Assembly (NCBI GenBank): GCA_021414225.1
Contig: JAIOOX010000002.1
Coordinates: forward strand, 342,958 to 406,957
Reading direction: 5' to 3'
DNA length: 64,000 nucleotides
From: Candidatus Vogelbacteria bacterium
Lineage (GTDB): Bacteria > Patescibacteriota > Minisyncoccia > Phycocordibacterales > XYD1-FULL-46-19
This document shows, piece by piece, positions 4,143-37,919 of this stretch. The number at the start of each line of letters is the position of its first letter. Within the stretch, counting starts at the first letter, position 1. The position numbers were made by a program, and so were the translations under genes. The notes below the pieces were generated by a model that was given only the letters and a program-made list of their open reading frames with translations, made no database searches and had not been told where the DNA came from.

Positions 4143-5123
4143 TTATCCTATAATTTGTTTTGCGATAACCCTAGACATAACCAGTATTTCTCCTATTGAA
4201 CCTCCTCCTAAACGGCCCTTTCCATGCATACCATAAGCACATTCACCGAGGGCGTACATATTTTTTACTTTCGTTTCTCCTCGTTTATTTATACGGATAC
4301 CCCCTAGAACAAAATGGGGTTCAATATCAAGTTCTATTCTCTGTTTTCCATTTACGGCATACCTCTTGGCTGTTTTTTGATATTCTTTACAAATATCGTC
4401 GAACCGATGGTGAGCGTTATGAGCCCTCACTAAGTCGTGCGTTAGTTTAAGTCTTTTATTTTTCTCATCAATAAAATCAAAACTATACAAATTATCACTA
4501 GGGATGCATACCCCTTTAGAGTAAAACGGGTGCCTCATTACTAAATCTTGATACATAACAGTACACCCAGCCGCCCTAACAATCTCAAACATATTGTTTT
4601 GCACTCTTTCATCAACAAATTTATCTGATAATCTTGCTCTTAGCCCACCAAAACAAAAAACAATTTTCTGGCAATGAATAACACCCTGAGATGTCACAAC
4701 TTCTACATACTTACGACTTTTTTTAACGGAAATAACCTCGGCATAAATTCGACTGAAATCAGACTCTTTTTTTATTTTATTAAGCAGTAACTTGGGGTTG
4801 CTAACCTTTGCACCCAGATAAGAAGGTTCCATTTTTGTTAGGTGACTCAAATAAGTAAGTTCGTCATCAATATTGTTTACAAATATACTAACTAATTGCT
4901 TGTTACTTTTGCCGTAACTAGCCAAACTCATCGATTCTTTTAATGACGTCTGTTTTACTCCTCGTGACCTGATATTAAAGTAGGATTTATCACTAACCGT
5001 TTTCATATCAGGGGCAACAATTAGAAAATCATGTTTACCACCCACAATAAGATGGTGAGCCAAATAAAGACCAGAAAACCCAGCACCCACAATAACAATA
5101 TCTGTTGTTTTAATTTTTTCCAT
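4143..5123 (-). CDS. FAD/NAD(P)-binding oxidoreductase
   Basis: N-terminal Rossmann dinucleotide motif VIVGAGFSGLYLAHHL; 326 aa. Confidence 0.6.
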   Translation of the reverse strand: MEKIKTTDIVIVGAGFSGLYLAHHLIVGGKHDFLIVAPDMKTVSDKSYFNIRSRGVKQTSLKESMSLASYGKSNKQLVSIFVNNIDDELTYLSHLTKMEPSYLGAKVSNPKLLLNKIKKESDFSRIYAEVISVKKSRKYVEVVTSQGVIHCQKIVFCFGGLRARLSDKFVDERVQNNMFEIVRAAGCTVMYQDLVMRHPFYSKGVCIPSDNLYSFDFIDEKNKRLKLTHDLVRAHNAHHRFDDICKEYQKTAKRYAVNGKQRIELDIEPHFVLGGIRINKRGETKVKNMYALGECAYGMHGKGRLGGGSIGEILVMSRVIAKQIIG

Positions 5124-27012: not shown

Positions 27013-27687
27013 TTAGACTGTCTTTTTAATGGTTTTGGTGGTTTTGGCTATTTGAGCCACTTTCCACTCTTCTATTTTTTTATGATCGCCCGACAAAAGG
27101 ATTGGTGGAACTTTGTATTTTTTACCTTTATAAGCCACTATTTCTGGTCTAGTATAGATTTCAGTCCCAGCTGGGCGCCCTTCTTCGAGTGATTCCTCTT
27201 TCCCCAACACGCCTTTGATTTGACGAGCTACCGCATCTACCACAATCATGGCCGGTAGTTCCCCACCAGTTAGAATATACGGACCAATAGATAATTCTTC
27301 CGCTTTAAATATTTTTTTAATTCGAGCATCAATCCCCTCGTATCGTCCAGCCACCAAGACAATATGATCAAATTTTTGAGCATAAGTTTTAGCTAACGGA
27401 TTCGTGAAAGATTTTCCTCCTGGAGCGAACAAAACGACTTTCACCTTCTTTTTGTTTTTAATTATTTTATCAATGGCTTTAATTAGTGGTTCTGGTTTGA
27501 AAACCATCCCTGGTCCCCCGCCATATGGTTTGAAATCAACGTGTTGATGTTTATCGACAGTAAAATCGCGCAGATTATAAATCTTGACCGCAATTTTTTT
27601 ACCCTTCACAGCCCGAGCGATCATCGACTCGCCCAGGTAGCCGGTAAACATCTCCGGGAAAATTGTAACGATATGAAATGTAACCAT
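27013..27687 (-). CDS. trmD: tRNA (guanine37-N1)-methyltransferase
   Basis: MVTFHIVTIFPEMF N-terminus, SPOUT knot motifs; the start is taken at the internal ATG 27687 rather than the ORF-track start. Confidence 0.85.
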   Translation of the reverse strand: MVTFHIVTIFPEMFTGYLGESMIARAVKGKKIAVKIYNLRDFTVDKHQHVDFKPYGGGPGMVFKPEPLIKAIDKIIKNKKKVKVVLFAPGGKSFTNPLAKTYAQKFDHIVLVAGRYEGIDARIKKIFKAEELSIGPYILTGGELPAMIVVDAVARQIKGVLGKEESLEEGRPAGTEIYTRPEIVAYKGKKYKVPPILLSGDHKKIEEWKVAQIAKTTKTIKKTV

Positions 27688-27791
27688 TGGCCAAATCCTA
27701 GCATTAAAAAACTTAAAAAGAAATCGCCGCCAGAAAATTCTAGCGGCGACAGGTTTCAAAAAAGTTAAAAGATGGAATTCACCTCACATAT

Positions 27792-28523
27792 TCACTCTAC
27801 CACTTCACGACCACGACAAAGATGACCATAGTCCCGAGCACCCCACAGCTCTATCAGTAAACTGCTTTGGGAAGTCTTCTTTTTCTCACACCATTCAGCT
27901 GAATAGAACATGGAGTAGTCACTGTCCTCTCTGTGGTCTCTGTGGTATGAACCTGAACAAAGTGTTTTGGTTTTAACATCGAGATGTTGCCCTGTCTCCG
28001 AAAAATATACTAGTTCGTAGACAAGACGCTCCCGCAAAGTCATTCCGTTAACACCTCTTTCTTTTAATTCTTTAATTGGAAGACCTGCCAACAAGGGGTC
28101 AGCTTCGATACTATCACGAACCCAAACTCCATAAGTTTCCTCCGCTGTACGATTATTCTTCGCCACCGGCGGAAGCGGGCGTTCATTATCGGCGCTAATG
28201 ATAGTGACGCTGAACATTTGTCGCAATATCACGATGAGATTTTCTTCCAACAGGCCTCCTGGCAACACGAGAAGCCGCTCGAAACCCGACTTCCTTTCTG
28301 GAACAATCACAGAAGAAGGTTTAATCTTCACTCCAAAATCAGCATACACCGAACAAACCCGGTTGAGCTGAGAATCAGTATCCATTGGGTAGACCCATGG
28401 ATCTTCCCGCCTGAGAAACCGCCTGGCTTGTAATGGGGTGATAGCCGCAGTATTCAACTTGTTCATGAAATCAAGACCGAGGCCGAAGAGGTTCGCTCTT
28501 GGGCTGCCGAGCATGTTTGACAT
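27792..28523 (-). CDS. Hypothetical protein (243 aa), GC-rich insert between the KH gene and trmD where rimM is normally found
   Basis: No recognisable motif; compositionally distinct from the neighbours. Confidence 0.45.
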   Translation of the reverse strand: MSNMLGSPRANLFGLGLDFMNKLNTAAITPLQARRFLRREDPWVYPMDTDSQLNRVCSVYADFGVKIKPSSVIVPERKSGFERLLVLPGGLLEENLIVILRQMFSVTIISADNERPLPPVAKNNRTAEETYGVWVRDSIEADPLLAGLPIKELKERGVNGMTLRERLVYELVYFSETGQHLDVKTKTLCSGSYHRDHREDSDYSMFYSAEWCEKKKTSQSSLLIELWGARDYGHLCRGREVVE

Positions 28524-28682
28524 GGTCAGCCTTCCTTTCTTTTATCTTTTCGAGGTGCCACAGCAGTAGATTAGCGAAATGCCAAGTACCCTGTTCTAAT
28601 TATTATTATAGCATATAACCAGTAAAAATGCAAGGCCAAGCACTCACAAGCCAAGTGAGCCTAATTGTTTTGCAAATCAACA

Positions 28683-28716
28683 AAAAAACACCCTTATGTA
28701 AGGTGTTTTTTTGAAA
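28683..28716. terminator. Bidirectional hairpin acacc ttatgtaa ggtgt flanked by A7 and T7
   Basis: Seen in sequence. Confidence 0.55.
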
Positions 28717-28735
28717 CTGAGTTCCAGTAGAGCGA

Positions 28736-28841
28736 ACTATTCCATTTTAGGAGACTTCGCAAGATCGACGGATCGAGACTTGAGGAATTTTCTAGCAAGA
28801 AAATATCCGTGCTCCTAAGATGGAGATAGTGAACGTTTTTT
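28736..28841 (+). ncRNA. Structured element copy A (about 95 nt, 18-bp closing stem, conserved core, then GTGAACG + T6)
   Basis: Core gagRCTTCGCAAGA...CGAGACTTGAGGAATTTTC.AGCA.GAAAATATCCGT.CTCC shared with 36189-36291; the G-U wobble in the closing stem is valid only for a + strand RNA. Confidence 0.5.
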
Positions 28842-29163
28842 AAAATTTCAAATCCTCCATCGCTTGATCCACAGATCGAGAAGCTGACATTGGAGCGGGA
28901 GCCCGAGTACTACCTTCTGGTTCGTTTATTTTTAGGTTTACGCGAGCATTATTTTTCATTCCCACCACTCGGAGTAAAGTACGGATGGCTTTAGCAGTAT
29001 TGCCTTGGCGACCGATAATTTTACCCATATCTTCCGGATGAACATCAAGACTAATCAATACTCCCATTTCATCTACCTTGCGACCAACCTTAACCTCTTC
29101 TGGATGATCGACTAGGGCCTTAACAAGCATTTCTAAGAATTCCTGATCTTTGTGAGCGTCCAT
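28840..29163 (-). CDS. KH-domain RNA-binding protein (YlqC/KhpA-like)
   Basis: GKIIGRQGNTAKAIRTLL KH motif; conserved position downstream of rpsP. Confidence 0.7.
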   Translation of the reverse strand: MDAHKDQEFLEMLVKALVDHPEEVKVGRKVDEMGVLISLDVHPEDMGKIIGRQGNTAKAIRTLLRVVGMKNNARVNLKINEPEGSTRAPAPMSASRSVDQAMEDLKF

Positions 29164-29311
29164 TATAAAATCTATAAACTAAGGCTTATAAATGACCAGG
29201 CAGAATATCTGCCGACCAGTTAATTGTAGACGAGGCCAATACCTTTGTCAAAATAAAATCCCTTCGATTTTTTTATCAAAGGGATTTTATTTTTTAAAAT
29301 TTAAAAAATAT

Positions 29312-29779
29312 TTAAGCGGTTTTTTCTTCAGCAGGAGTTTCAGCTACTACTTCTGGTTCTGGAGTGGTTTCAACTGGAGCTTCAACAGGCGCTTCTTCTA
29401 CTACTGGAGTCTCAGTAGCCACCTCCTCCTCAACCTTCACTTCTTCTACCTTCTCCACTACTGGTGCTTCTGGAGCTTTTTCTTCTACTTTAGGTTCTTC
29501 TGGTTTAACTGGCTTTTGACCAAGCACATTAACTGTCTTACCAGCTACCACCTTAAATTTAACCAACATGTTGTGAACTGTATCAGAAATACCAGCCCCC
29601 ATAGCCAACCAGTGTTTGATACGGTCAGCATTTAGTTGTGGTTTACCAAAACGAGCATTGTAAGATCCAAGTACTTCCAAAAACTTGCCACTTTGTGGAC
29701 CATTTTTAGAGTCGGTCACAACCACCCGGAAAGACGGGTCATTTTTGCGGCCAACACGTTGTAATCGGATCATTAACAT
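29312..29779 (-). CDS. rpsP: 30S ribosomal protein S16 with acidic E/P/V-rich C-terminal extension
   Basis: MLMIRLQRVGRKNDPSFRVVVTDSKNGPQSGKFLEVLGSYN matches the S16 N-terminus; start at internal ATG. Confidence 0.85.
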   Translation of the reverse strand: MLMIRLQRVGRKNDPSFRVVVTDSKNGPQSGKFLEVLGSYNARFGKPQLNADRIKHWLAMGAGISDTVHNMLVKFKVVAGKTVNVLGQKPVKPEEPKVEEKAPEAPVVEKVEEVKVEEEVATETPVVEEAPVEAPVETTPEPEVVAETPAEEKTA

Positions 29780-29966
29780 GACCACGAGATAGTAACATAA
29801 AAGGCCGGCTAAAGGCAAGTAGAAACACTTCTAAACGCCGTCAAACGGAAGGTGGGCACTAAGGAAGGGGGTTTGCCGAGTGGCGACGAGGCAACTTCAG
29901 GATTTTTTAAGCTTCAAAAAATCTGTACCCTTCTCTAGTGCCCACCTGAAGTGCTATACTCGCACC

Positions 29967-31966: not shown

Positions 31967-32329
31967 CTAGATAGTAACCACTGGTGTGAACAGGTAGAGT
32001 CCGCCGCTGGCGCTCCACACATAATCATCCCAGAAGTCATAAGCAACACCACTGTTGGTATCAACAGCCGGCCGTCCTTCATAGTTGAACAGGAAGACCT
32101 TTTTGCCAGCAGGTAATCCTCTCTGTTCCCGCCAGAAGAGATCGATCAAGGACCCAGATAGACAGAGCTTCTCCAAGCTAATCCCCACCGAACCAAAGAG
32201 GTCCAGAAAACTGCCATCGCCCATTGCTCGATAAACAGCGAAGCCTGAGGATATCGCCAGCCCGCTTTCTGGTGGGACCAGGGTGACACAATCTGGACGA
32301 AGAATCATCCCCTCTTTTATCTCAAACAC
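31967..32329 (-). CDS. Hypothetical protein (120 aa), GC-rich
   Basis: Overlaps the upstream gene by 13 nt (operon). Confidence 0.4.
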   Translation of the reverse strand: MFEIKEGMILRPDCVTLVPPESGLAISSGFAVYRAMGDGSFLDLFGSVGISLEKLCLSGSLIDLFWREQRGLPAGKKVFLFNYEGRPAVDTNSGVAYDFWDDYVWSASGGLYLFTPVVTI

Positions 32330-33237
32330 GGGAACGCCTCCCTTTTTCCACCAAATAGATGGGACAGGAGATCTCCGCCCGCCTGGCTGGTGAATTGAAG
32401 CTGAGTCAGTGAAAGATCCAGCTTGGCTGGCAAGCTCTGCCGCTCTAAGTCTACAGCAGTCAAAGATCTCCCGTTCGCTGGCTGTCCTTCAGGCAAGCGG
32501 AAGAGGACCTTCCAACAAATCTCCTCCGAATGACAGCAGTAGAGCAGTTCCTCCTTCACAGACATTTCAGGCTCCACACTAGAGTAACAGACCCTTGTCT
32601 TTCCGCTGATGCCGCGATCTTTACTCCAATGTTCAAGTACATAGAAGTGATGTTCTCCGTACCAGTTAGTAACGACCCCCTCCGTTGCCACCAGCACCGG
32701 TTGGTGATAAGTGGTCTGATAGCCACAGATTCCCAGAATCGGGATGATCGTGTAGGGGCACTCCAGTAGCCCCATTTCCAAACCCCGCGAATAGACATCC
32801 TGCAGAGACATCGACTTGTCGTCCTTGTCAAAACCAAGGTCTTCAAGAGATACCTCGACAAAAGTCATATCAAAGACATCGCCTTGTGGCTGAAGTAGCA
32901 ACTGGGCAATAATCCCTTCCGCCCCCCGAGCTTGGTGACTGTGCGAATACAAGCGATGGTGACCACCACCATCTCCCCGTCTAAAGCGAAGAGGTATGTG
33001 CCATAAGTCGCTGAAACAGAGGTTTAGCCCCATCTCTTTGACCAAATCGGCCAACTGTTCATAGTCCTCGGGACTGGGAATTGGGTACCTGACCCGAAAG
33101 ACCGGCCCAGATATCAGTCCGGGCAACTTACTATTCGGCCCAGAAAGAAGTCCAGCTGGATCACCGGGTGGGACAACGCCCACTCTCTGTACATTGTTTT
33201 TCACGATTAAGAAGCTCCTTTTTAAAGTCCACGTCAT
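32317..33237 (-). CDS. Hypothetical protein (306 aa), GC-rich
   Basis: No recognisable motif; compositional outlier. Confidence 0.45.
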   Translation of the reverse strand: MTWTLKRSFLIVKNNVQRVGVVPPGDPAGLLSGPNSKLPGLISGPVFRVRYPIPSPEDYEQLADLVKEMGLNLCFSDLWHIPLRFRRGDGGGHHRLYSHSHQARGAEGIIAQLLLQPQGDVFDMTFVEVSLEDLGFDKDDKSMSLQDVYSRGLEMGLLECPYTIIPILGICGYQTTYHQPVLVATEGVVTNWYGEHHFYVLEHWSKDRGISGKTRVCYSSVEPEMSVKEELLYCCHSEEICWKVLFRLPEGQPANGRSLTAVDLERQSLPAKLDLSLTQLQFTSQAGGDLLSHLFGGKREAFPCLR

Positions 33238-33340: not shown

Positions 33341-35581
33341 TTACTTAGCAAATCCAGCTGCCTCATCAAATCTAATTGATAGAAGTTTAGATACCCCATC
33401 AGAACCCATGGTCACACCATAAAGGATACTGGCTCGAGACATTGTTTCCCTATTGTGAGTGATGACGATTAGTTGAGAGTGTTTGGCGAGAGCGGTCACC
33501 ATTTCACCGTATTTGCGAGAGTTGGCTTCATCAAGGGCCGCGTCAGTTTCATCAAGAATCAAAAATGGTGGCGGATTAACTTGCGACATCGCAAAGAGTA
33601 AAGCGATAGAAGTCAGAGCGCGCTCACCACCAGAGAGCATCTGGAGACCTTTTATTTTCTTCCGTGGTAAGTTCACATTAATATCAATCCCCGTTTCCAC
33701 TTCTTTATCGCCTTCAGTTATATCACCCTCCATCTCTTCTCCACTATCATCAGAGAAGACGCTACGCTTGCGCTTCACTTCTTGAACTAACTCTAGCGAA
33801 GCCGATCCCCCGTCGAACATCAGCACAAAGAAGTTATTAAATTCTTTGTTAATTTTTCCAATACCTTCAGCAAATTCGTGTGACAGCTTTTCGCGCAATT
33901 CTTTCATCACATTCTTCAAACTTTCAGAGGCGGTCAACAAATCTTCCAATTCTTTGGCTAAATATTCATCACGCTCAGTCACCTCTTTGTATTCAGTCAG
34001 TACATCAGTCCCTTCCATACCCATATCTTCCAAGCGAATCTTAATGCGCTCGATCGTGCGACGACGGTCTTCTTGTTTATCGCGAGGTTCATTATCTGGC
34101 ACAAAAGAAGCCATAAAGCGATCGTACTCCAGCACTTCCCGATCCACTAAAGTCACCGCCTCATCTAGCTCTCGTTTGAAGTTTTCTTGAAGAACCGCCA
34201 AAGTCCTAGATTCCGCTTCAGTGGCATCAAGAATAGAAGATAACTCCATTTTCTTAGAGCGTAATTCAAACACTTCTCGCTCGGCGCCGCGAGTCGCTTC
34301 GCGCTCTTTTTCTATCGCTTGTTTAAGTTCTAACTGACGACCCAAGTTTTTCTCTTCGTCGGCAATCAATTGAGCCAGTTCCTGATCAAGTTCTACTTTC
34401 TGATTTTTCAGTGAAGCTAAAACTTCTTCTTTATTATCCTCTCTCTTAATCTGGTGTTTAAATTTATCAACAAAATTTCTCAGTAAACTTTTGACTTCAA
34501 TCAAGGCCGAGCGTAAGACTGAGATATTATCAAGCTGAGCCCGACTATCAATATGCGCTTCAATATTAGCCAAGACTGATTTCAACTCTGACATCGGCAC
34601 CGAGGCATCTTCTTCGGTTTTTATTTCCGCCAATTGTTCCGTCTTTATTTCAATCAAACCTTCTAGACGACCAAGTTGCCGAGCAATATCGTCTTTCTTG
34701 GTGCGAATATCGCGAAGGAGGCGCTCCAGCACCGCCAATTCTCCACTGGCCGCTGATTCACTAATATCGCGCTTAAGTGCCTGTTCCGCATCAGCTAAAC
34801 GAGCCAAAACAGCTGTTAGTTCCGCTTGCGGTCCAGACTTTTTGTGAGTCAAGCTATTGGCGGTTTCAATTAAATAAACTGATTCGCGTTTTAAATATTC
34901 AAAATATAATTTCTTGAGTTCCCGACGCATTTCGTCAGCCTTCTCCACTTTCTCGACCTGCTTTTTCAAAAACCGAATATGCGGCGCAATCTCGCGACGG
35001 AGTGATTCTATTTCTTTAACATTTTGCTCGGTCTTATCTAATTTCTTTTCACTTTCGGTAATTTTCCATTGATACACTTTCAAACCTAAAGCCTCTTCAA
35101 TCATTTCTTGCCGATCTTTAATACTGGAATTTAAAATTCGATCAGCTTCGCCTTGAGAAATAATATGATGACCGGTCGAACCAAGCGAGACTGAACCAAG
35201 TAGCTCAATAATATCTTTCAATCGCACAGCTGAACCATTGATCGCGTACTCGTTGGAACCATCGCGATGGACAGTACGGGTGATAACTACTTCATCATAA
35301 TCAATATTGAAACGCTTCGATGTATTATCAAAAGCGACCGAGACTGAGGCTCGATTGAGCCGACCACTGGAACTAGTGCCGTTGAAAATTAAGTCTTCTC
35401 CACGTTTACCACGCAGAGATTTGAGAGACTGCTCACCGAGCACCCAACGAAAGGCTTCGGCCACGTTTGATTTACCAGAGCCATTAGGACCGACAATAGA
35501 TGTAACCGGCGCGTCAAAAGACAAGGTCGTTTTTTTACCAAAAGACTTAAAACCATTTATTTCTAGCCTGGTGAGACGCAT
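33341..35581 (-). CDS. smc: SMC-like chromosome segregation ATPase, short form (about 746 aa from ATG 35581)
   Basis: N-terminal RLTRLEINGFKSF...GPNGSGKSN Walker A, long coiled coil, C-terminal LSGGERALTSIALLFAM signature and Walker B ILDETDAALD. Confidence 0.65.
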   Translation of the reverse strand: MRLTRLEINGFKSFGKKTTLSFDAPVTSIVGPNGSGKSNVAEAFRWVLGEQSLKSLRGKRGEDLIFNGTSSSGRLNRASVSVAFDNTSKRFNIDYDEVVITRTVHRDGSNEYAINGSAVRLKDIIELLGSVSLGSTGHHIISQGEADRILNSSIKDRQEMIEEALGLKVYQWKITESEKKLDKTEQNVKEIESLRREIAPHIRFLKKQVEKVEKADEMRRELKKLYFEYLKRESVYLIETANSLTHKKSGPQAELTAVLARLADAEQALKRDISESAASGELAVLERLLRDIRTKKDDIARQLGRLEGLIEIKTEQLAEIKTEEDASVPMSELKSVLANIEAHIDSRAQLDNISVLRSALIEVKSLLRNFVDKFKHQIKREDNKEEVLASLKNQKVELDQELAQLIADEEKNLGRQLELKQAIEKEREATRGAEREVFELRSKKMELSSILDATEAESRTLAVLQENFKRELDEAVTLVDREVLEYDRFMASFVPDNEPRDKQEDRRRTIERIKIRLEDMGMEGTDVLTEYKEVTERDEYLAKELEDLLTASESLKNVMKELREKLSHEFAEGIGKINKEFNNFFVLMFDGGSASLELVQEVKRKRSVFSDDSGEEMEGDITEGDKEVETGIDINVNLPRKKIKGLQMLSGGERALTSIALLFAMSQVNPPPFLILDETDAALDEANSRKYGEMVTALAKHSQLIVITHNRETMSRASILYGVTMGSDGVSKLLSIRFDEAAGFAK

Positions 35582-35621
35582 GGGTAAATAATACCATAAG
35601 CTTATCTTCCCTAGAAACAAT

Positions 35622-35662
35622 GAACCCGCCTCGCGACGTGTTCATTGTCGGGGCGGGTGTGA
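35622..35662 (-). terminator. Island-family terminator (cccgcctcgcgacg...ttgtcggggcggg)
   Basis: Near-identical arms to 11451-11491. Confidence 0.6.
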
Positions 35663-35670
35663 AATCTGAT

Positions 35671-35976
35671 TTAGTCTTGGTGGACAGGTACGTCCATGAC
35701 TTCGCCAAAACGCGAAATGGCACCTTTGTAATCAATCGTGGCCAAATCCGGGAACAATTCCAGAAGAACCGGCCGCAACTGCTCACGACAGACAAACGCT
35801 GTACCACTCCACGAATCACAACCAGCTGCCACTTCGGATGGCAAAGCGGTCTTCGCCAAATCCATCAACTCTTGGGTTGTGACGGCCACAGTCCCAGGCA
35901 AGGTCTTGGCCGAGCCTACCAACCAAAGTACTCTGGTTGGATGTTTTTTTGTGACCCAACTGGCTACAGAAGACAT
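35671..35976 (-). CDS. Hypothetical protein (101 aa), GC-rich solitary cassette between rnc and smc
   Basis: AAGGAG RBS 9 nt upstream; consensus promoter further upstream; island-type terminator downstream. Confidence 0.5.
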   Translation of the reverse strand: MSSVASWVTKKHPTRVLWLVGSAKTLPGTVAVTTQELMDLAKTALPSEVAAGCDSWSGTAFVCREQLRPVLLELFPDLATIDYKGAISRFGEVMDVPVHQD

Positions 35977-36065
35977 TTTTTCTACTCCTTGTTAGAATTT
36001 AGACTGACCATAAACTGCCACAAAGCAGACCATAAGGCCAACTAAACCCATTTATTCTGTAATTA

Positions 36066-36094
36066 ATTATACACCCAAATAGTCTTTCTGTCAA
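36066..36094 (-). promoter_or_regulatory. Consensus sigma-70 promoter TTGACA-N17-TATAAT (minus strand)
   Basis: -35 at 36089-36094, -10 at 36066-36071, exact consensus in both hexamers, 17-nt spacer. Confidence 0.6.
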
Positions 36095-36188
36095 GGAATT
36101 GGGTTTTTGAAGTAAGCGAAACAAGTTCTCAGACAAAGGCTCGCACAACAGTCGACTAGCCGGTTTTTGCATTTTTGGGCCAAGTGAA

Positions 36189-36291
36189 CCCCTGCTTTTT
36201 GGGAGGCTTCGCAAGACGGGTAGTCGAGACTTGAGGAATTTTTCAGCAGAAAAATATCCGTACTCCCAAAAAGCAGGGGTGAACGATTTTT
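36189..36291 (+). ncRNA. Structured element copy B (perfect 17-bp closing stem cccctgctttttgggag/ctcccaaaaagcagggg)
   Basis: Same core and same GTGAACG + T-run as copy A; compensatory 1-nt insertions in the internal GGAATTTT(T)C/GAAAA(A)TATCC stem. Confidence 0.5.
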
Positions 36292-36985
36292 AATCCCACC
36301 CCTTCTCCTTCAACCCCTTATCTGCCGCATCCTGCTCCGCTTCTTGTTTAGAGTGACCTTCACCAGTCGTCACCTGCTCTTCACCAATAAACAAACCGAC
36401 GGTAAATTTTTTATTATGATCCGGACCAACTTCAGCTAAGACTTGGTAAGCAGGGGTCACACTAAAGTGCTCTTGGGCTTTTTCTTGAAAATAACTTTTT
36501 GAGTCTTGCCATAATTCCCCTTCGACAATTTTATCGGTTTTATTAAAAAGATTATCAGCAATAAATTTGGCTGCCACCTCATAACCTTGATCCAAATAGA
36601 TAGCCCCCACCACCGATTCAAAAGTATTGGCTAAAATATATTGACGAGCTCGGCCGGTATCTTTGGCTTCTCCCCTAGATAGAAGCAAATAATCATTCAA
36701 ACCAAGTTCCGTAGCCACGTCAGATAAAGAGTTGGTATTAACCAAAGCAGCTCGCAAAGCGGTCAACTCTCCTTCTGGTTTAGTCGAATAGCGTTTATAT
36801 AAAAAGTCAGTTACCACCAATTCCAACACCGCATCACCCAAAAATTCTAGCCGTTCGTTATGAGGCAAAGTCACATCTCGATGCTCATTAAGATAAGAAC
36901 GATGAATAAAGGCTTGTTTGAGCAAGTCTTTGTCATTAAAAGTCAGGCCGATACGTTTAGCAAATTGATTGGGGTCTAAAGACAT
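36290..36985 (-). CDS. rnc: Ribonuclease III
   Basis: ERLEFLGDAVL signature; C-terminal dsRBD. Confidence 0.9.
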   Translation of the reverse strand: MSLDPNQFAKRIGLTFNDKDLLKQAFIHRSYLNEHRDVTLPHNERLEFLGDAVLELVVTDFLYKRYSTKPEGELTALRAALVNTNSLSDVATELGLNDYLLLSRGEAKDTGRARQYILANTFESVVGAIYLDQGYEVAAKFIADNLFNKTDKIVEGELWQDSKSYFQEKAQEHFSVTPAYQVLAEVGPDHNKKFTVGLFIGEEQVTTGEGHSKQEAEQDAADKGLKEKGWD

Positions 36986-37004
36986 ATTCTGAACATTACT
37001 AGCA

Positions 37005-37919
37005 TTAAGAAGCCTTGTTTGACAACAACACCTTAATCGCTTTGGTTACCAACGGCACCACATCGTCATACATTTTCAGATCCAGCACTTCTGACAACAG
37101 AAACCAGCGGGCGTCGGTTAACCCACCCTTACCTTCCTCGAGTTTTATCTCCTCCGGATTGCTGGCTACAGCAAGGAAATAAGACACTTGTTTACGCACT
37201 TTACCTAACTCTGGATTGGAAGCAATGTATTCGTTAGTGCCTAAAGTTTCACCTATTGTAATATCTAAAGCCATTTCTTCTTTTATCTCTCTAACGGTTC
37301 CATCCTCCACTTTTTCTCCTGGTTCTATTTTCCCTTTTGATAAAGTCCAATAACCAAAAATATCATGCACTAAGGCAATTTTAATTTGCTGACCAGTTTG
37401 GTGATAGACTACCGCTCCACCTAATTTTTGAATTGGCATCTCTTCATATGACACATCTTTAAATCGTCGCTTCTTAGCTGGAACGTCATGTTTACCCGGT
37501 TCACCCATTTCTTTATACACCGCTCCCAACACTCCATTCACAAACCGGCCAGAGTTTTCTCCACCAAAAGTTTTAGCTAATTCAATAGACTCATTAATCG
37601 CCACTCGAGCCGGCACTTCATTTTTATCACCAAACAATAATTCAAATAATCCAAGACGTAGGACATTTCGATCCACAGCCGCAATCTGATCAATCGGCCA
37701 ATCCGGAGCGGCTTTTTCGATAATAGAATCTAATTTTTCCAATCGAGACACTACTCCTTCCGCTAATTTTTTGGCAAAAATAATTTCCTCTAAACCAGGC
37801 GCAAATTCTTCAGCGTCTCGTTCTAAGACTTCCGTAATATCTGGATGTTTATCATCATAAAAATCCCACTCAAAAAGCGACTGCATCGCAAGACTTCGAG
37901 ATAAGTGCCGATTAGCCAT
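37005..37919 (-). CDS. NusB-like antitermination domain fused to a C-terminal NUDIX hydrolase domain
   Basis: N-terminal NusB fold (RSLAMQSLFEWDF...); C-terminal Nudix box GKIEPGEKVEDGTVREIKEEMAL. Confidence 0.65.
   Translation of the reverse strand: MANRHLSRSLAMQSLFEWDFYDDKHPDITEVLERDAEEFAPGLEEIIFAKKLAEGVVSRLEKLDSIIEKAAPDWPIDQIAAVDRNVLRLGLFELLFGDKNEVPARVAINESIELAKTFGGENSGRFVNGVLGAVYKEMGEPGKHDVPAKKRRFKDVSYEEMPIQKLGGAVVYHQTGQQIKIALVHDIFGYWTLSKGKIEPGEKVEDGTVREIKEEMALDITIGETLGTNEYIASNPELGKVRKQVSYFLAVASNPEEIKLEEGKGGLTDARWFLLSEVLDLKMYDDVVPLVTKAIKVLLSNKAS

Follow-up and report, generated by a model that had tools for sequence, protein, structure and literature searches.

Structured palindromes downstream of khpA and rnc as probable members of an uncatalogued MITE-like repeat family of Patescibacteria

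Two short palindromes lie just downstream of khpA and rnc, antisense to their flanking genes, and the question raised by this locus is what kind of element would keep a common core while closing it with different stems. A sequence-only reading of the window (the whole 64-kb stretch of DNA analysed here, which belongs to a Candidatus Vogelbacteria genome) had described the pair as structured copies with a shared core and compensatory stem changes, had offered a small RNA, a bidirectional terminator or a MITE-like element as candidates, and had associated each copy with an adjacent GC-rich gene. Both structured copies, called A and B hereafter, are present at the places where they had been located, and they are confirmed by the covariation of a whole family. 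The count of two was real but too low, the window holding two further diverged copies (C and D) and one relic (Table 1). The family makes up about 0.6% of the window's length.

Copies A and B each consist of a closing stem of 17 to 18 bp (P1) capped by the two hairpins P2 and P3. Their closing stems have only the inner GGAG/CUCC in common and are each self-complementary, P1 of copy A including one U.G pair and one bulged G. According to the family alignment, the P3 hairpins of the two copies have the same AGCA loop and differ below it in two base pairs that are swapped (C-G/U-A), a reading that replaces the gain of one T and one A that had been read into the internal stem of copy B. The 18-mer CGAGACTTGAGGAATTTT is found on the + strand at 28774 and 36225 and nowhere else in the window, where 0.11 occurrences would be expected by chance. 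The predicted + strand RNA folds reach -39.3 kcal/mol for A and -47.2 kcal/mol for B (z-scores of -4.6 and -5.5), those of the reverse strand being weaker (-32.5 and -44.1 kcal/mol).

Table 1. Features of the window, with the layout of copies A and B and the scores of covariance models R1 and R2 (bits)
Feature	Position	Strand	R1	R2	Remarks
trmD	27013-27759	-			
ORF243	27792-28523	-			no family match
Terminator hairpin	28681-28713				canonical; separate from copy A
Copy A	28732-28835	+	89.4	68.8	type 1a core; short form without terminal inverted repeats
Copy A, stem extension	28732-28736/28830-28835				GCGAAC/GUGAAC
Copy A, closing stem P1	28737-28753/28812-28829				
Copy A, junction pair	28754/28811				A.G
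Copy A, CUUCG	28755-28759				
Copy A, P2	28760-28782				CAAG-AUC-GACG-GAU-CGAGA-CUUG
Copy A, A	28783				
Copy A, P3	28784-28808				AGCA loop, bulged A
Copy A, 3' T-run	28836-28841				
khpA	28840-29163	-			
rpsP	29312-29818	-			
Copy C	29850-29947	+	35.6	30.9	diverged member; perfect long stem, rearranged P2 domain; fold -47.7 kcal/mol; between divergent rpsP and rnr
Third GC-richer orphan ORF	32317-33237	-			in smc-rnr spacer
SMC gene (759 aa) and NusB-NUDIX gene		-			flank the rnc-ORF101 region
ORF101	35671-35976	-			no family match
Copy B	36184-36284	+	111.8	59.1	type 1a core; short form
Copy B, stem extension	36184-36188/36280-36284				GUGAAC/GUGAAC
Copy B, closing stem P1	36189-36205/36263-36279				
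Copy B, junction pair	36206/36262				G.A
Copy B, P2	36212-36233				
Copy B, P3	36235-36259				
Copy B, tail	36285-36291				GATTTTT; overlaps rnc stop codon
rnc	36290-36985	-			
Relic of a fifth copy	42721-42777	+			decayed; CCGAGCCGAGGAAG still present; intact copy at the L186 orthologous site (2680-2772)
Copy D	60388-60484	+	33.2	57.7	diverged member, intermediate of types 1a and 1b; between rpe and transketolase gene, antisense to both

Both copies end with GTGAACG and a T-run overlapping the TAA of khpA (28840-28842) or of rnc (36290-36292). The recurrence of GTGAAC on both flanks of copy B, taken earlier for a possible target-site duplication, belongs to the fold instead: GUGAAC pairs with GUGAAC (G-C, U-A, G.A, A.G, A-U, C-G) and extends the stem through a tandem G.A, and other subfamilies have different conserved flank motifs at this position (GCGGAGC/GCGGAGC and CGUUGAAG/UGAGAAAG). 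Copy A sits between the khpA stop codon and the canonical terminator hairpin, after which comes ORF243 with its own promoter; copy B is bordered on one side by the rnc stop codon and on the other by the promoter of ORF101, a perfect TTGACA-17-TATAAT. The four intact copies and the relic are all on the + strand, nearly all surrounding genes being on the minus strand, and the rpsP-khpA operon is bracketed by copies A and C in direct orientation.

Family, host range and a covarying fold

A first scan of genomes with the pattern CTTCGCAAG-N6-18-GAGACTTGAGG, which fixes 20 core bases, returned 57 loci. Of these, 6 were chance hits in other phyla and 51 were true matches, all in Patescibacteria (records labelled Saccharibacteria, Parcubacteria, Zambryskii-, Taylor-, Nomura- and Adlerbacteria, and Minisyncoccia); some genomes contained as many as about 9. 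Fixing these 20 bases exaggerated the conservation of the core; once P3 was fixed instead, P2 turned out to be diverse. The second scan, in which only P3 was fixed as the exact 27-mer GGAATTTTTCAGCAGAAAAATATCCGT, was made in metagenomes and gave at least 120 loci from groundwater, lakes, sediment and sludge, the Hainich wells contributing many of the hits. Covariance models were then available from 47 copies of the first scan (R1) and from 69 copies of type 1b (R2). Model R1 newly found the two diverged copies of the window, together with about a dozen diverged copies in other loci, and R2 recovered in the window the same four copies and no others, giving a single hit of 20.9 bits in 0.92 Mb of unrelated DNA used as a specificity control. 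The element is non-coding, 95 to 176 bp long, and forms hairpins between ORFs in nearly all loci, the window alone containing four copies and one relic in 64 kb.

At the gathering threshold, Rfam 15 gave only three tRNAs in the window and no family at the elements. At E<=10, only generic hairpin matches (miRNA precursors), far below threshold, overlapped the elements; besides the window, these searches covered types 1a and 1b and the "type 2" module described below. No score came near the gathering threshold in Rfam 15 for the hammerhead, twister, twister-sister, pistol, hatchet and HDV-like ribozymes, Y RNA or 6S RNA, and full-text literature searches on Patescibacteria/CPR in combination with ncRNA, MITE, repeat or structured RNA yielded nothing relevant. 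No description of the family turned up in Rfam 15 or in the searchable literature, and it had previously been uncatalogued. A phage or plasmid origin was rejected, as BLAST found no match to the element in phage and plasmid collections and the viral collection does not contain the P3 25-mer; an earlier scan of this collection with a 14-mer had given chance matches only.

The centre of the element is predicted to be a three-way junction formed by the long closing stem and the hairpins P2 and P3, some variants having an extra hairpin that makes it a four-way junction. P2 has a G.A-rich internal loop (GGA/GAG or CGA/GAG) and a terminal loop of GACG, GACUG or GGGUA, and P3 has a bulged A and an ANYA tetraloop (AGCA, AACA, ACCA or AGUA). 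Copies A and B are of type 1a, the commonest P2 design in the second set being type 1b, (A/C)-CUUG-(G/C)GA-GCGC-GAC(U)G-GCGC-GAG-CACG-A; a single consensus for the P2 domain was given up, since the two types use different pairings.

Covariation was assessed in two alignments. In the type 1a alignment (A3), 96.4% of the cells were paired, with a covariation of 0.489 against 0.124 after shuffling and none of 500 shuffles as good; 16 of the 17 pairs of P1 and 6 of the 10 pairs of P3 covary, and sliding the 3' partners as a control lowered pairing to 42-54%. The independent type 1b alignment (A4), in which P3 was fixed, was 92.0% paired, again with none of 500 shuffles as good (0.514 against 0.125), and showed covariation in P1, P2a and P2b, with a conserved U.C mismatch within P2a. 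Together, the two alignments support every helix of the predicted fold, and the junction pair swaps between A.G and G.A across the family. The covariance-model search that had been suggested as a check of the structure thus yielded many homologues with strong covariation. The centre is the most conserved part, the ends varying between subfamilies.

The fold is also constrained on one strand. Isolated mismatches in P1, read on the + strand, were of G.U type in 27 cases against 1 of A.C type in the first set, and in 40 against 9 in the independent metagenome set. Moreover, among 162 distinct copies, 154 folded more stably as + strand RNA than as the reverse strand (-41.8 versus -36.8 kcal/mol, p=4e-25). 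The + strand reading drawn earlier from the single G-U wobble of copy A is borne out by this family-wide asymmetry. As neither asymmetry could be produced by a cruciform in duplex DNA, both point to a constraint on the single-stranded + strand, either RNA or DNA. The fold would thus be selected in a single-stranded form of the + strand, most likely RNA.

Two structural proposals were rejected. Insertion of the core into the loops of pre-existing terminators does not fit, since conserved motifs alternate with variable paired segments and since terminal repeats and duplications, where present, bound the whole hairpin. A loop-loop complementarity between P2 and P3, of the kind found in phage pRNA, was inconsistent across subtypes when inspected by eye.

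One subfamily, GCGGAGC-GAAAGAGGTTGGCGGGAGG...CTCCCGCCGGCCTGCTTTC-GCGGAGC, has a stem and flanks that are nearly identical across MAGs with different CPR labels (L013, L017, L031, L039, L041, L042, L044 and L050), and keeps U.G pairs and one bulge on the + strand. This near-identity suggests either a recent horizontal spread or a strong constraint on the whole hairpin.

Termini, target duplications and comparison of strains

Four near-identical copies of 141 to 176 bp in one Parcubacteria genome start with CTTTGAATTACGAAAC and finish with its complement, and all four are flanked by perfect 7-bp direct repeats that are specific to each site (TATAATA, TATTATA, TATTTTA and TAACTTA). The CTTTGAATTACGAAAC terminal repeat was found in 13 copies from several sources, including type 1b copies from unrelated metagenomes, and duplications of 6 to 7 bp flank 7 of these 13, the four Parcubacteria siblings included (other examples are TCATATA, TCATAC and AGAATA). 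An eighth duplication, TCTTGAAA, flanks a copy whose ends have diverged, and terminal inverted repeats are also common to the CALRAJ pair. Full-length members measure about 130 to 160 bp, are intergenic, number many per genome of roughly 1 Mb, and are flanked by 6- to 8-bp duplications of AT-rich target DNA. Many copies, including all four of the window, have no terminal repeat and no clear duplication, and their outer arms differ; mobility is shown for some subfamilies only. A search of about 1.3 Mb of fetched CPR DNA for an autonomous partner or transposase gave none with matching ends, and no repeat-flanked ORF. The idea that the stems are copied from the target DNA was discarded, because sibling copies at different sites have the same arms.

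Close relatives differ in their content of the element. The L186 contig aligns with the window at 91-96% identity over about 17 kb. It does not have copy A, the khpA-trmD spacer being 90 nt long with the same terminator kept, and it retains only half of copy C, and it carries an intact copy at the site where the window has the relic. Copy B is also found after rnc in L178 and L186, with two substitutions. In L181, whose RNase III is 81% identical, an element lies at the end of rnc; its stem is different throughout, and its P3 shows compensatory changes. In L183 and L185 (74% RNase III identity), rnc overlaps smc, the khpA-trmD gap is 42 nt, and there is no element at either site. As judged from these alignments, copies have been gained, half-deleted or decayed between strains that are about 93% identical. 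With terminal inverted repeats, target-site duplications, dispersal in multiple copies and presence or absence between close strains, the MITE-like candidate put forward by the sequence-only reading is the one that gained support. As a separate observation, the element of L181 (4690-4800) is inserted so near the end of rnc that the RNase III frame continues into an arm of the element, where a TAG closes it, the protein ending in ...GWETLA* and not in ...GWD*.

The same comparisons bear on the supposed link between the element and the adjacent ORFs, which fell away. L181 has the element after rnc without an ORF, and L186 has the element with a different ORF; in the window, the native terminator parts copy A from the ORF243 cassette, and conserved DNA parts the cassettes from the elements. 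The element is independent of the neighbouring orphan ORFs and occurs without these inserts. The ORF cassettes are a separate phenomenon, strain-specific orphan genes with their own promoters. As for their composition, the ORFs beside A and B are indeed richer in GC than their surroundings, but only moderately so (0.47-0.52 versus about 0.40-0.43).

Orientation, transcription signals and competing readings

Orientation relative to neighbouring genes was counted for 168 distinct copies. The gene on the 3' side of the element is convergent in 69 cases and co-directional in 36 (p=0.002), and elements lying between co-directional genes are antisense to them in 37 cases and sense in 15 (p=0.003), so that flanking mRNAs mostly contain the strand opposite to the one selected for folding. 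GC skew, taken in the orientation of the element, is negative for 78 copies and positive for 47 (p=0.007). The four copies of the window agree with the orientation pattern or are neutral to it. As judged by eye, 105 flanking ORFs are housekeeping genes, with no recurring mobile-element, integrase or HUH genes seen among them.

Altogether, these findings argue for copies A and B being two of at least four intact window copies of a CPR-confined, MITE-like family of palindromes, in which the fold would be a module that the element needs in order to persist or spread. This is the reading that we hold to be probable, with considerable room left for others. We propose a model in which a DDE-type transposase, suggested by the features of the ends and duplications and not found in the CPR DNA searched, would move the elements in trans. 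The fold would be that of a + strand RNA, less likely of single-stranded DNA, needed by the element itself, and transcription of the element in sense may give an RNA that undergoes processing or to which a factor binds. Such a property of the sense RNA could be harmful (polar) inside operons, so that sense copies would be disfavoured there, which would result in the antisense excess between co-directional genes. The copies of the window, having neither terminal repeats nor a promoter, are probably passengers unable to move, present as reverse complement in the 3' untranslated regions of khpA and rnc. Weighing against the MITE-like reading are the missing autonomous partner in the CPR DNA searched and the many copies with neither a terminal repeat nor a clear duplication. 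A strand-specific fold is also left unexplained by cut-and-paste transposition of the DDE type, and, if the fold is that of a + strand RNA, no promoter accounts for its synthesis and flanking transcription more often yields the other strand.

A more speculative reading is that of a new CPR mobile unit spreading via a folded single strand. This strand could be an active junction RNA that processes itself or recruits a transposase or host factor. Alternatively, the whole palindrome could travel, or be taken into cells, as a single-stranded hairpin able to restore its double-stranded ends by itself, with priming or recognition taking place at the junction. Both versions would account for the one-strand G.U rule, the missing promoter, the conserved centre and the near-identical cores in distant CPR lineages, and in both, integration would still yield target duplications. 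We regard it as unlikely, though it stands first among the alternatives to the MITE-like reading.

The position of the copies brings to mind a cis-acting mRNA element recruited by the host, either a stable 3' hairpin at which upstream transcripts terminate or by which they are protected, or a site between the genes of an operon where RNase III processes the mRNA. Copies are intergenic and often abut a stop codon, a convergent gene neighbours their 3' side 69 times out of 105, A and B lie within the 3' untranslated regions of khpA and rnc, and perfect stems of 17 to 30 bp would suit RNase III in either orientation. Transcription argues the other way, the flanking mRNAs carrying mostly the strand not selected for pairing, and a conserved three-way junction would be superfluous for a plain hairpin; moreover, copy A is followed by a separate canonical terminator, and relatives do without the element at the same sites. 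The bidirectional terminator envisaged for A and B in particular could not be upheld: the terminator scan called none at either copy and found instead the separate hairpin that follows khpA, most members of the family do not have a T-run, and the T-run of the window copies is on the + strand only, the minus strand having none after the hairpin. A recruited mRNA element is next in rank and improbable in our view.

Ranked just behind it, and likewise improbable, are independently transcribed small RNA genes, either trans-acting riboregulators or protein-binding RNAs of the Y-RNA type, which would have been duplicated and whose mobility would be incidental. The strand-specific fold, more stable on the + strand in nearly all copies, with its conserved junction and loop nucleotides and non-canonical pairs, is what such genes would show, as is the + strand T-run after the window copies. 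The signals of transcription speak against them, no sigma-70-like promoter being found upstream of A or B on the + strand and no enrichment of promoters at a constant position in 152 copies, results that also tell against the promoter-driven small RNA considered earlier. T-runs are missing from most copies, the hairpin is exactly bounded by terminal repeats and target duplications where these occur, and close strains do without individual copies. A promoter within the element was likewise rejected: TTGAAT-N15-TATAAT is present in some arms, with a spacing that is too short and no positional enrichment.

Finally, the fold could be that of single-stranded DNA at a recombination or priming site (an attC, an IS200/IS605 end or a single-strand origin) used for movement or second-strand synthesis. 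Here, the strand-specific constraint without a visible promoter, the conservation of structure over variable arm sequences as in attC, the strain-variable ORF cassettes beside A and B and the mild GC-skew bias would all find a place, and G.T is the best-tolerated mismatch in DNA hairpins too. Set against this, HUH and tyrosine recombinases that act on single strands are not known to leave target-site duplications, the skew puts the + strand on the C-rich strand, opposite to the IS608 rule, no integrase or HUH gene was seen by eye in the translations of flanking ORFs, and the cassettes have their own promoters, with conserved DNA lying between them and the elements. A rule of the IS608 type, tied to the replication strand, was rejected after a small sample (28:34) gave nothing and a larger one gave a weak bias in the opposite sense. 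We consider a single-stranded DNA site of this kind doubtful, and the least probable of the readings weighed so far. As for chance or trivial palindromes, or unrelated terminator hairpins sharing some sequence, the position of A and B just past stop codons and ahead of T-runs would fit, but the shared 18-mer, and hundreds of covarying homologues with a clean negative control, refute them.

Related systems, a second module and orphan cassettes

Among described elements, the Correia elements of Neisseria (CREE/NEMIS) are MITEs of about 100 to 155 bp that are intergenic and strain-polymorphic, with conserved inverted ends and a TA duplication, and that are co-transcribed with their neighbours as long hairpins that RNase III can cut. 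The CPR element resembles them as a small non-coding unit with inverted ends, target duplications, many intergenic copies and strain polymorphism, but differs in its 6- to 8-bp duplication, variable ends, conserved structured centre and CPR hosts; to our knowledge, neither a covarying three-way-junction core nor a one-strand G.U bias has been described for Correia elements. ERIC/IRU of enterobacteria and RUP, BOX and SPRITE of Streptococcus pneumoniae are dispersed intergenic imperfect palindromes of about 100 to 130 bp with a stable predicted RNA, and we know of no agreed function for them. The CPR element has no sequence relationship to these repeats of other phyla, no Rfam or BLAST match having been found, and it has a covarying three-helix junction kept across very distant hosts.

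The attC sites of integrons are also reminiscent, since their structure is kept while their sequence varies, one folded strand is selected, and variable cassettes lie nearby. The CPR element, however, has no R and L boxes, its conserved part is central, its copies are single and dispersed, it has terminal repeats and target duplications, and the cassettes beside it have consensus promoters and are not contiguous with it. No integrase or attI was found at the element, nor any integrase among the flanking ORFs inspected by eye. With the REP/BIME palindromes of RAYT systems and the ends of IS200/IS605 (PATEs), the likeness lies in extragenic palindromes and the recognition of single-strand hairpins. 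These are about 35 to 40 nt long or subterminal, depend on a Y1 HUH transposase and are not known to give a target duplication, whereas the CPR element has 95 to 176 nt, target duplications and the opposite sense of GC skew (78 negative versus 47).

Plant retrozymes are reported to be non-autonomous retroelements with hammerhead ribozymes (PMC4918200). They share with the CPR element a small non-coding mobile unit, a conserved structured RNA and flanking target duplications, but they are eukaryotic and move via circular RNA, and the CPR element has no ribozyme match and ends in inverted repeats. By analogy, the closest systems in behaviour appear to be the bacterial MITEs and palindromic repeats (Correia, ERIC, RUP, BOX), with no relationship in sequence or family. 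What distinguishes the CPR element is the combination of a conserved centre with RNA-like covariation, a strand rule and its recurrence in very distant CPR lineages. CPR/Patescibacteria genomes are tiny and have little space for repeats, yet the element is common in metagenomes of groundwater, lakes and sludge. As it is missing from Rfam, annotators can take its copies for terminators or small RNAs, and the two covariance models are usable to mask or annotate them. Strains that are near-identical differ in their insertions, which makes these usable as strain markers and as a record of recent mobility in unculturable organisms. The reason why a repeat resembling a transposon keeps a strand-specific junction, once understood, could uncover either an RNA that takes part in transposition or a new small functional RNA in the CPR.

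A second conserved and structured module, "type 2" (TGAGAAGTGA-loop-TCACTTCGCAAGACCTTG-hairpin-CRAAGGTGTAC-TGCTCC-TGTAA-GGAGAG), was seen at L021 (5690-5880, + strand) and on the reverse strand of L048 (~4870-5050). It also lies inside type 1 elements (L043, L034, L038 and L023), at three different positions and in both orientations. In one Parcubacteria and one Saccharibacteria genome, it forms the 3' domain of an intergenic region of ~190 nt with a covarying 5' hairpin, located in Saccharibacteria just upstream of rnc. The module has no match in Rfam and may be an undescribed CPR ncRNA having the ACUUCGCAAG motif in common with type 1a.

The three moderately GC-richer orphan ORFs of the window occupy spacers of conserved operons (khpA-trmD, rnc-smc and smc-rnr), and promoter-like sites lie upstream of two of the three, that of ORF101 being the perfect consensus. 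Among 5.8 billion proteins, ORF243 had no relative other than itself, while the homologues of rnc are consistent with a Paceibacteria/CPR origin. At the places of the orphan ORFs, L186 (~93% identical) has either other small ORFs, of 119 and 85 aa, or no ORF at all, and a more distant relative has none; these spacers look like hot spots for strain-specific gene cassettes. The gene content around them (27013-29818 and 33341-37919 of the window) is reduced and unusual in a way typical of the CPR: rimM is absent between khpA and trmD, NusB is fused to a NUDIX domain in a protein of 304 aa, SMC has only 759 aa, and the RNase III gene overlaps smc in the relative L183.
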